DNA of 64,000 nt, taken from the NCBI RefSeq assembly GCF_030384885.1, contig NZ_CP128613.1. One strand, 5' to 3'. Shown piece by piece: positions 32,119 to 32,681 of the stretch. Under the pieces are notes generated by a model that worked only from the letters and a program-made list of their open reading frames with translations, was not told the DNA's origin and did no database searches. Origin of the DNA: Escherichia coli. GTDB lineage: Bacteria > Pseudomonadota > Gammaproteobacteria > Enterobacterales > Enterobacteriaceae. The position numbers and the translations under genes were made by a program. Numbering within the stretch: position 1 is the first letter of the stretch; each line of letters begins with the position of its first letter.

Positions 32119-32397
32119 ATGATAATGAATTTCAGACACAAGGGATTGCGTGACTTGTTTCTTCTCGGCAAAACCTCCGGCGTTATACCGACGCAAATCA
32201 AACGATTACGCCACCGACTCGCTGTGATTGATGCAGCAAGCTGTCTTGCTGATATCGATATGCCCGGCTACCGACTACACCCGTTAAGCGGCGATCGTGA
32301 TGGAATTTGGGCGATATCTGTCTCGGGCAACTGGCGAATCACATTTGAATTCGTCAATGGCGATGCATACATACTGGATTACGAGGACTATCACTGA
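32119..32397 (+). CDS. HigB/RelE-family toxin (about 90 aa)
   Basis: Small basic protein; [13 protein letters not shown]-terminus is typical of HigB-like killer proteins; the true start may be ATG 32125; its stop overlaps the antitoxin start (ATGA). Confidence 0.65.
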
Positions 32398-32681
32398 TGA
32401 AAATGGCCAATCATCCCCGCCCGGGGGACATTATTCAGGAATCACTGGACGAGCTGAACGTCAGCCTGCGCGAGTTTGCCAGAGCAATGGAAATTGCGCC
32501 CTCAACGGCAAGCCGATTGCTGACCGGAAAAGCGGCATTGACGCCAGAAATGGCAATTAAACTTTCCGTGGTGATCGGCAGTTCGCCGCAAATGTGGCTG
32601 AATCTACAAAACGCCTGGAGTCTGGCTGAGGCAGAAAAAACGGTAGATGTGTCGCGACTACGCCGTCTGGTTACGCAATAA
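32397..32681 (+). CDS. yddM: HigA-type HTH (XRE) antitoxin / transcriptional regulator (94 aa)
   Basis: Helix-turn-helix ([26 protein letters not shown]); toxin-then-antitoxin order as in higBA; position matches remembered yddM. Confidence 0.7.

Follow-up and report, generated by a model that had tools for sequence, protein, structure and literature searches.

The gene pair at positions 32119-32681 of the window, by which we mean the whole 64,000-nucleotide stretch of Escherichia coli DNA analysed here, is an ordinary pair of toxin-antitoxin genes, already annotated and of the classic Rts1 HigB/HigA type, and most E. coli strains, K-12 included, no longer have the toxin but retain the antitoxin gene yddM. 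We consider it highly probable (roughly 85%) that the two genes form a type II toxin-antitoxin operon of the Rts1 kind on the chromosome. The first gene, higB (32119-32397, + strand), is intact and encodes a HigB-like toxin (PF05015) of the RelE superfamily, 92 amino acids long, and the second, yddM or higA (32397-32681, + strand), encodes a 94-amino-acid XRE-type helix-turn-helix (HTH) antitoxin and presumed autorepressor, as read from the open reading frame listing with Pfam and, for the antitoxin, NCBIfam profiles. A preliminary description of this DNA had placed two ORFs at exactly these coordinates and had recognised in them a toxin-first HigB/HigA pair, an observation that is confirmed in substance by the gene order and by the PF05015 and TIGR02607 scores given below. 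The toxin gene lies upstream of the antitoxin gene with a 1-nt overlap, which is the higBA architecture: the higB stop codon TGA (32395-32397) and the yddM start codon ATG (32397-32399) share one nucleotide in the string TGATG, so that the single-nucleotide overlap described earlier stands and the four-nucleotide ATGA motif given for it does not. This stop/start overlap is kept in 22 of 22 orthologues, as TGATG, TAATG or GCATGA, the last being a variant with one codon more. The pair is preceded by adhP, whose stop lies at 31933, leaving a spacer of 185 bp before higB, and is followed by the convergent fdnI. The region is 100% identical to that of E. coli strain 2013C-4282, where RefSeq names the toxin 'type II toxin-antitoxin system RelE/ParE family toxin' (WP_000605673.1) and the antitoxin 'yddM, HigA family addiction module antitoxin' (WP_000781370.1). 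Since RefSeq annotates both genes and a comparative study of 2020 lists the locus of the AIEC strain NRG857c as 'ParE-2/HigA-2' (TA20; Bustamante and Vidal 2020, PMC7232551), the pair was already known, and the toxin-less state of K-12 and HS had also been reported there.

The toxin, anticipated as a RelE-fold-like protein of about 90 amino acids, matches the Pfam family HigB-like_toxin (PF05015) over profile positions 2-91 of 91 with an E-value of 1.4e-17 and 64.4 bits, well past the curated cutoff of 27. Against Proteus vulgaris Rts1 HigB, also of 92 residues, it gives a phmmer E-value of 1e-31 and aligns without gaps over residues 1-92, with 51 of 92 positions identical (55%). His54, Asp90, Tyr91 and His92 of Rts1 HigB, the mutation of any one of which abolishes toxicity and all of which are required for mRNA cleavage (PMC5027501), stand at identical positions in this alignment and are present in all 22 orthologues, so that the catalytic residues whose absence would have spoken against the preliminary description are all in place. 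Asn71 and Arg73 are likewise kept, whereas Lys57 and Arg69 of Rts1 HigB are both replaced by serine; the K57A substitution has been found not to be essential in Rts1 HigB (PMC5027501). We found no published experiment on the toxicity or cleavage activity of the toxin of this locus.

The preliminary description had also called for an alignment to HigB and YgjN, and here the two comparisons part ways: besides the clear relationship to Rts1 HigB, no similarity to YgjN was seen. In a phmmer search of all PDB chains (E<=10) nothing matched the toxin other than Rts1 HigB and Pseudomonas putida GraT, and together with the Pfam scan, which returned only PF05015, this places the toxin apart from YgjN. 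Since these two were the only PDB matches at E<=10, a comparison with the K-12 HigB (YgjN) is uninformative. YgjN is represented in PDB by a solved structure (5IFG) and belongs to a different Pfam family, PF09907. The toxin's relative is Rts1 HigB and not K-12 HigB. The K-12 pair YgjN-YgjM has the same name and the same toxin-first order, and K-12 HigB has the same general activity, being a ribosome-dependent mRNase, but the pair occupies a different chromosomal locus, shares no detectable sequence similarity, and carries the HTH of its HigA at the C-terminus, in contrast to the N-terminal HTH of the CFT073/Rts1-type HigA. The shared HigB/HigA name therefore covers two different families, an Rts1 type and a K-12 type. 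Other labels in circulation, 'ParE-2' in PMC7232551 and 'RelE/ParE family toxin' in RefSeq, refer to the ParE_toxin superfamily and could be taken to mean that the toxin is a ParE-type gyrase poison. We consider this very improbable, because the Pfam scan at E<=0.01 returned no family other than the HigB-like PF05015, no ParE profile being matched at that threshold and RelE_StbE scoring 17.8 bits, below its cutoff of 27.9; because the toxin shares 55% of its residues, from end to end, with an mRNase whose dependence on the ribosome is proven both biochemically and structurally, and keeps the catalytic residues; and because its partner is HigA, not ParD.

The identification of the second gene as an XRE-type HTH partner, yddM, is equally well borne out. 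It matches the NCBIfam equivalog TIGR02607 (antidote_HigA) with 93.7 bits against a cutoff of 47.7 and Pfam HTH_3 with 39.1 bits against a cutoff of 23, and its product is 100% identical to the 'antitoxin HigA' of PDB entries 2ICP and 2ICT, which, by the account given in later papers, is the HigA of E. coli CFT073 (Arbing et al. 2010). YddM aligns without gaps to Rts1 HigA and keeps Arg40, Ser23, Thr37, Ser39 and Lys45, all described in PMC12266136 as DNA-contacting residues, Arg40 being the one that reads an operator guanine in Rts1 HigA. The CFT073 HigA with the toxin upstream of it, and the 'ParE-2/HigA-2' of AIEC NRG857c, are the same locus as the one in the window; nothing essential differs, the window holding another allele (the CFT073 toxin gene is 97.8% identical to it at the DNA level), and the 'ParE' label is not supported by the family scan. 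The protein is identical in the window, K-12, CFT073, ST131, ECE313, C1 and TR01, with variants only near the C-terminus in O157:H7 Z1615 (E80A, T93A) and SCU-102 (R90H). A CFT073 higBA deletion without a urinary tract infection phenotype (Norton and Mulvey 2012) was considered as a possible knockout of this locus and rejected, since its primers are absent from the window; they encode the YgjN C-terminus, and the deletion is at the ygjNM-syntenic locus. A delta-yddM Keio mutant has been scored as hypersusceptible to epetraborole, a result that was not complemented.

A search for a palindromic operator in 32040-32118, proposed in the preliminary description, yielded two inverted repeats of 19 bp each, which start 29 bp apart and which we regard as putative operators. 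O1 (32060-32078) reads TGTTGC-N7-GGAACA, and O2 (32089-32107) is a perfect 6+6 repeat, TGTTCC-N7-GGAACA, that abuts the ribosome-binding site; they are the sole matches (with up to one mismatch) to TGTTsC-N7-GGAACA in the 64-kb window. Loci of YddM relatives were taken from one genome per species, and promoters were examined at the 22 with an intact toxin upstream; both repeats, with their spacing unchanged, recur in every one of these. Over 19 aligned promoters, comprising 18 orthologous promoters from 9 genera and the toxin-less K-12 allele, which was placed by motif search and promoter-only alignment, the arms are almost invariant (19 of 24 positions), whereas the 7-nt spacers vary and spacers and flanks together hold a single invariant position. 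The candidate promoter of higB, as read by eye from the sequence, is weak, consisting of a -35 TTGCGC (32062-32067, + strand), covered by O1, and, 16 nt further on, a -10 GATAGT (32084-32089, + strand), the last T of which is the first base of O2. The aligned -10 position in orthologues reads GATAAT, TATACT or TATGAT. A consensus promoter scan of 31800-32800 found none, the candidate hexamers falling below its threshold, and for that reason they can only be proposed. A Shine-Dalgarno-like AAGGA (32107-32111, + strand) lies 7 nt before the higB ATG, and the orthologues keep GG/AGGA at the corresponding place.

The layout of the two repeats mirrors that of the Rts1 Phig promoter, in which, as described in the literature, O1 lies on the -35 and O2 on the -10 element, two operators thus covering the promoter. 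In addition to the toxin-first gene order, the Rts1 system (PDB 4MCT/4MCX, 4YPB, 6CHV, 6W6U) shares with the window pair a folded HigA with an N-terminal HTH and the retained Arg40. Differences exist as well: Rts1 HigBA is plasmid-borne whereas the pair in the window is chromosomal and syntenic next to fdnI, and Rts1 HigA has 104 residues against 94 in YddM. Within one Rts1 operator the contacted G:C pairs are only 6 bp apart whereas the TGTTCC and GGAACA arms in the window are separated by 7 bp, and the geometry of DNA binding may therefore differ. GraT-GraA of P. putida and HigBA of P. aeruginosa belong to the same Pfam toxin family and share the HigA fold and the toxin-first order. The relationship to them is far more distant (E-values of 3e-7 for the toxin and 2e-11 for the antitoxin), and GraA and P. 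aeruginosa HigA recognise one central TTAAC-GTTAA palindrome with two cooperating dimers, in contrast to the two separate 19-bp repeats found here.

The pair had been described as an autonomous module lying between two terminators, and both parts of this statement hold with restrictions. Hairpins are present on both sides, but a consensus terminator scan of 31800-32800 called neither. The one after adhP (31943-31970, + strand; GCTGCGAC...GTCGCAGC then CCTGTTTTG) is an inverted repeat with a stem of 8-9 bp, a loop of 10-12 nt, four U following and a folding energy of -17.6 kcal/mol; with a z-score of only -1.15 it is a weak candidate for an adhP terminator, and it is kept in the toxin-less K-12 allele, there without the following T-run. 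The stronger one, an A7-hairpin-T4 structure between the convergent yddM and fdnI (32683-32710), folds with -14.1 kcal/mol on the + strand and -17.3 kcal/mol on the - strand (z -3.9 and -4.3), and z-scores of about -4 on both strands make it a credible, indeed likely, bidirectional terminator shared with fdnI; its 8-nt loop and the shortness of its T-run explain why the scan passed it over. With a conserved promoter region and putative operators of its own, the pair can be called autonomous for transcription, but not in the sense of a recent mobile insertion, given its synteny across genera. The stretch between yddM and fdnI varies among strains: a K-12-like allele (positions 1965-2370 of fetched locus L002, corresponding to about 32682-32731 in the window) holds two tandem units of about 178 bp, each having a further copy of the terminator hairpin beside REP-like palindromes, and such units number one in CFT073-like strains and none in the window. 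As for structured RNAs, an Rfam search of 30500-38000 returned no family besides the SECIS element of fdnG (SECIS_3, 36682-36740, - strand, 84.3 bits), situated at the start of the long fdnG ORF listed at 34275-36686. Its position fits the in-frame UGA that is known to encode selenocysteine in formate dehydrogenase-N.

The higB-yddM pair adjoins fdnI not only in E. coli but, as a tblastn of the fetched loci revealed, also in E. albertii, whose HigB is 99% identical to that of the window, and, with lower HigB identities, in some dozen species of Citrobacter (81-88%), in Pluralibacter (60%), in an Enterobacter sp. (60%) and 'Enterobacteriaceae bacterium 89' (62%). Because it is syntenic across several enterobacterial genera, the pair is ancestral at the fdnI site and not a recent insertion. 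Strong purifying selection acts on both genes, the dN/dS of higB being 0.04-0.13 against Citrobacter orthologues and 0.03-0.14 within E. coli, and that of yddM 0.02-0.07 against Citrobacter. Between the window and K-12, yddM shows zero non-synonymous and 13 synonymous changes. The divergence of yddM at synonymous sites among E. coli strains (pS 0.19) was at one point considered unusually high, but this was rejected as a peculiarity of the gene since the flanking adhP (0.18) and fdnI (0.14) are equally divergent. In E. albertii NBRC 107761 (fetched locus L007), higB, yddM and fdnI are no more distant from the window than K-12 is (pS 0.16-0.20), whereas the neighbouring adhP is far more divergent (pS 0.44), a contrast that hints at interspecies recombination in this region. 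Two database records deserve comment. The PLSDB entry NZ_CP141089.1 (hit H31), which carries this higB at 98.9% identity, is 4.9 Mb long and clearly an E. coli chromosome misfiled among plasmids, so that the apparent 'plasmid' copies of this exact gene are not real plasmid copies. A 214-bp contig of Clostridium sp. CMCC3677 (fetched locus L037), which has a coverage of 1 and matches codons 1-36 of E. coli yddM with 100% identity, is almost certainly contamination of that assembly.

The one notable feature of the locus is the loss of its toxin gene. Whereas the region is present in 5413 of the 5426 complete E. coli genomes, higB DNA is found in only 1330 of them and is thus absent from about 75%. 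In ST131 and relatives, moreover, higB carries a deletion of a single G at nt 98 (codon 33) and is annotated as 'frameshifted', an exact 41-mer across this deletion being present in 545 of the 5426 genomes. Given 1330 genomes with higB, 545 of which are frameshifted, at most about 785 (14%) can carry an intact higB like that of the window. The single-G deletion allele can be seen in the ST131 strain MB1341 (positions 601-878 of fetched locus L003; about 32216 in the window). K-12, O157:H7 and BL21 have yddM alone, 145 bp after adhP and preceded by both operators with different spacers. One O157:H7 strain, TR01 (positions 802-946 of fetched locus L004), has an adhP-yddM spacer of exactly the K-12 length of 145 bp that is nevertheless a mosaic, with a window-type left part, a K-12-type O1 and the last 47 nt of higB replacing O2. 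The plain K-12 allele is what other genomes of O157:H7 carry, and the TR01 spacer reflects either an uncommon recombination event or an error of assembly. In E. coli C1 (positions 135-250 of fetched locus L050), a 29-bp deletion between the two GGAAC repeats merges O1 and O2 into a single operator and removes the candidate -10, and an IS200/IS605 tnpA lies between yddM and fdnI. Outside E. coli, toxin decay with retention of the antitoxin occurred independently in Citrobacter sp. FP75, where a remnant of 26 amino acids is left, in C. portucalensis, by frameshift, in two Xenorhabdus and in Chimaeribacter californicus.

The toxin is dispensable and often lost, which counts against the reading of the locus as an Rts1-type HigBA operon, as do the serines in place of Lys57 and Arg69, the weak and uncalled promoter hexamers, and operators that, going by the bases contacted in Rts1, seem unlike those of Rts1 in sequence and arm spacing. 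The main rival to an active module is that YddM itself is the selected unit, either as a transcription factor under its own control or as an 'anti-addiction' antitoxin that counters HigB toxins arriving on plasmids, and that higB is a tolerated relic of slight activity or none. The persistence of YddM and of both operators in the toxin-less alleles of K-12, O157:H7 and BL21 would agree with this, as would the absence of any amino acid change in YddM between the window and K-12 and the recurrence of toxin loss in E. coli and in other genera. A ChIP-exo study of candidate transcription factors moreover lists K-12 YddM (PMC6237786, which refers to a supplementary figure for its targets), and HigB homologues of 38-56% identity are common on enterobacterial plasmids. 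However, higB in the window is full-length and has all essential residues, purifying selection on it both across genera and within E. coli is not expected of a relic, and the translational coupling and ribosome-binding site are conserved. We thus consider the relic explanation improbable and favor the Rts1-type operon.

If the locus works as its Rts1 counterpart does, a single promoter within the 185 bp that separate adhP from higB would transcribe higB and then yddM, and the TGATG overlap would couple the translation of the two. By analogy with the Rts1 system, HigB would occupy the A site of the ribosome and cut the mRNA there with His54, Asp90, Tyr91 and His92, toxicity being presumably ribosome-dependent, and a folded YddM dimer would bind and neutralise it. 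YddM, alone or in complex with the toxin, may also repress the promoter via the two inverted repeats over the -35 and -10.

As a discovery the locus carries little weight, since RefSeq annotates both genes, PDB has held the structure of the antitoxin since 2006-2010 and the presence/absence polymorphism is published. What our analysis adds is the conserved operator pair, the synteny across genera, the counts of toxin-less and frameshifted alleles and a correction of the family: the toxin should be named HigB (Rts1 type), not ParE or YgjN-like. The conserved TGTTCC-N7-GGAACA pair provides a concrete and testable candidate operator for YddM. A bolder and, in our estimation, doubtful proposal is that the pair, far from being a selfish insert that drifts, has been vertically inherited at fdnI since before the split of Escherichia and Citrobacter, with repeated loss of the toxin and strong purifying selection on the antitoxin and both operators, and that YddM has become a domesticated regulator or an anti-addiction factor; if this were true, YddM would neutralise plasmid-borne HigB toxins in strains such as K-12. 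In any case, yddM of K-12 is best seen as an orphan HigA whose toxin has been deleted, which aids the reading of yddM phenotypes and of ChIP data, and the repeated disappearance of the toxin from loci that keep the antitoxin offers a clean natural example of the decay of a toxin-antitoxin module.
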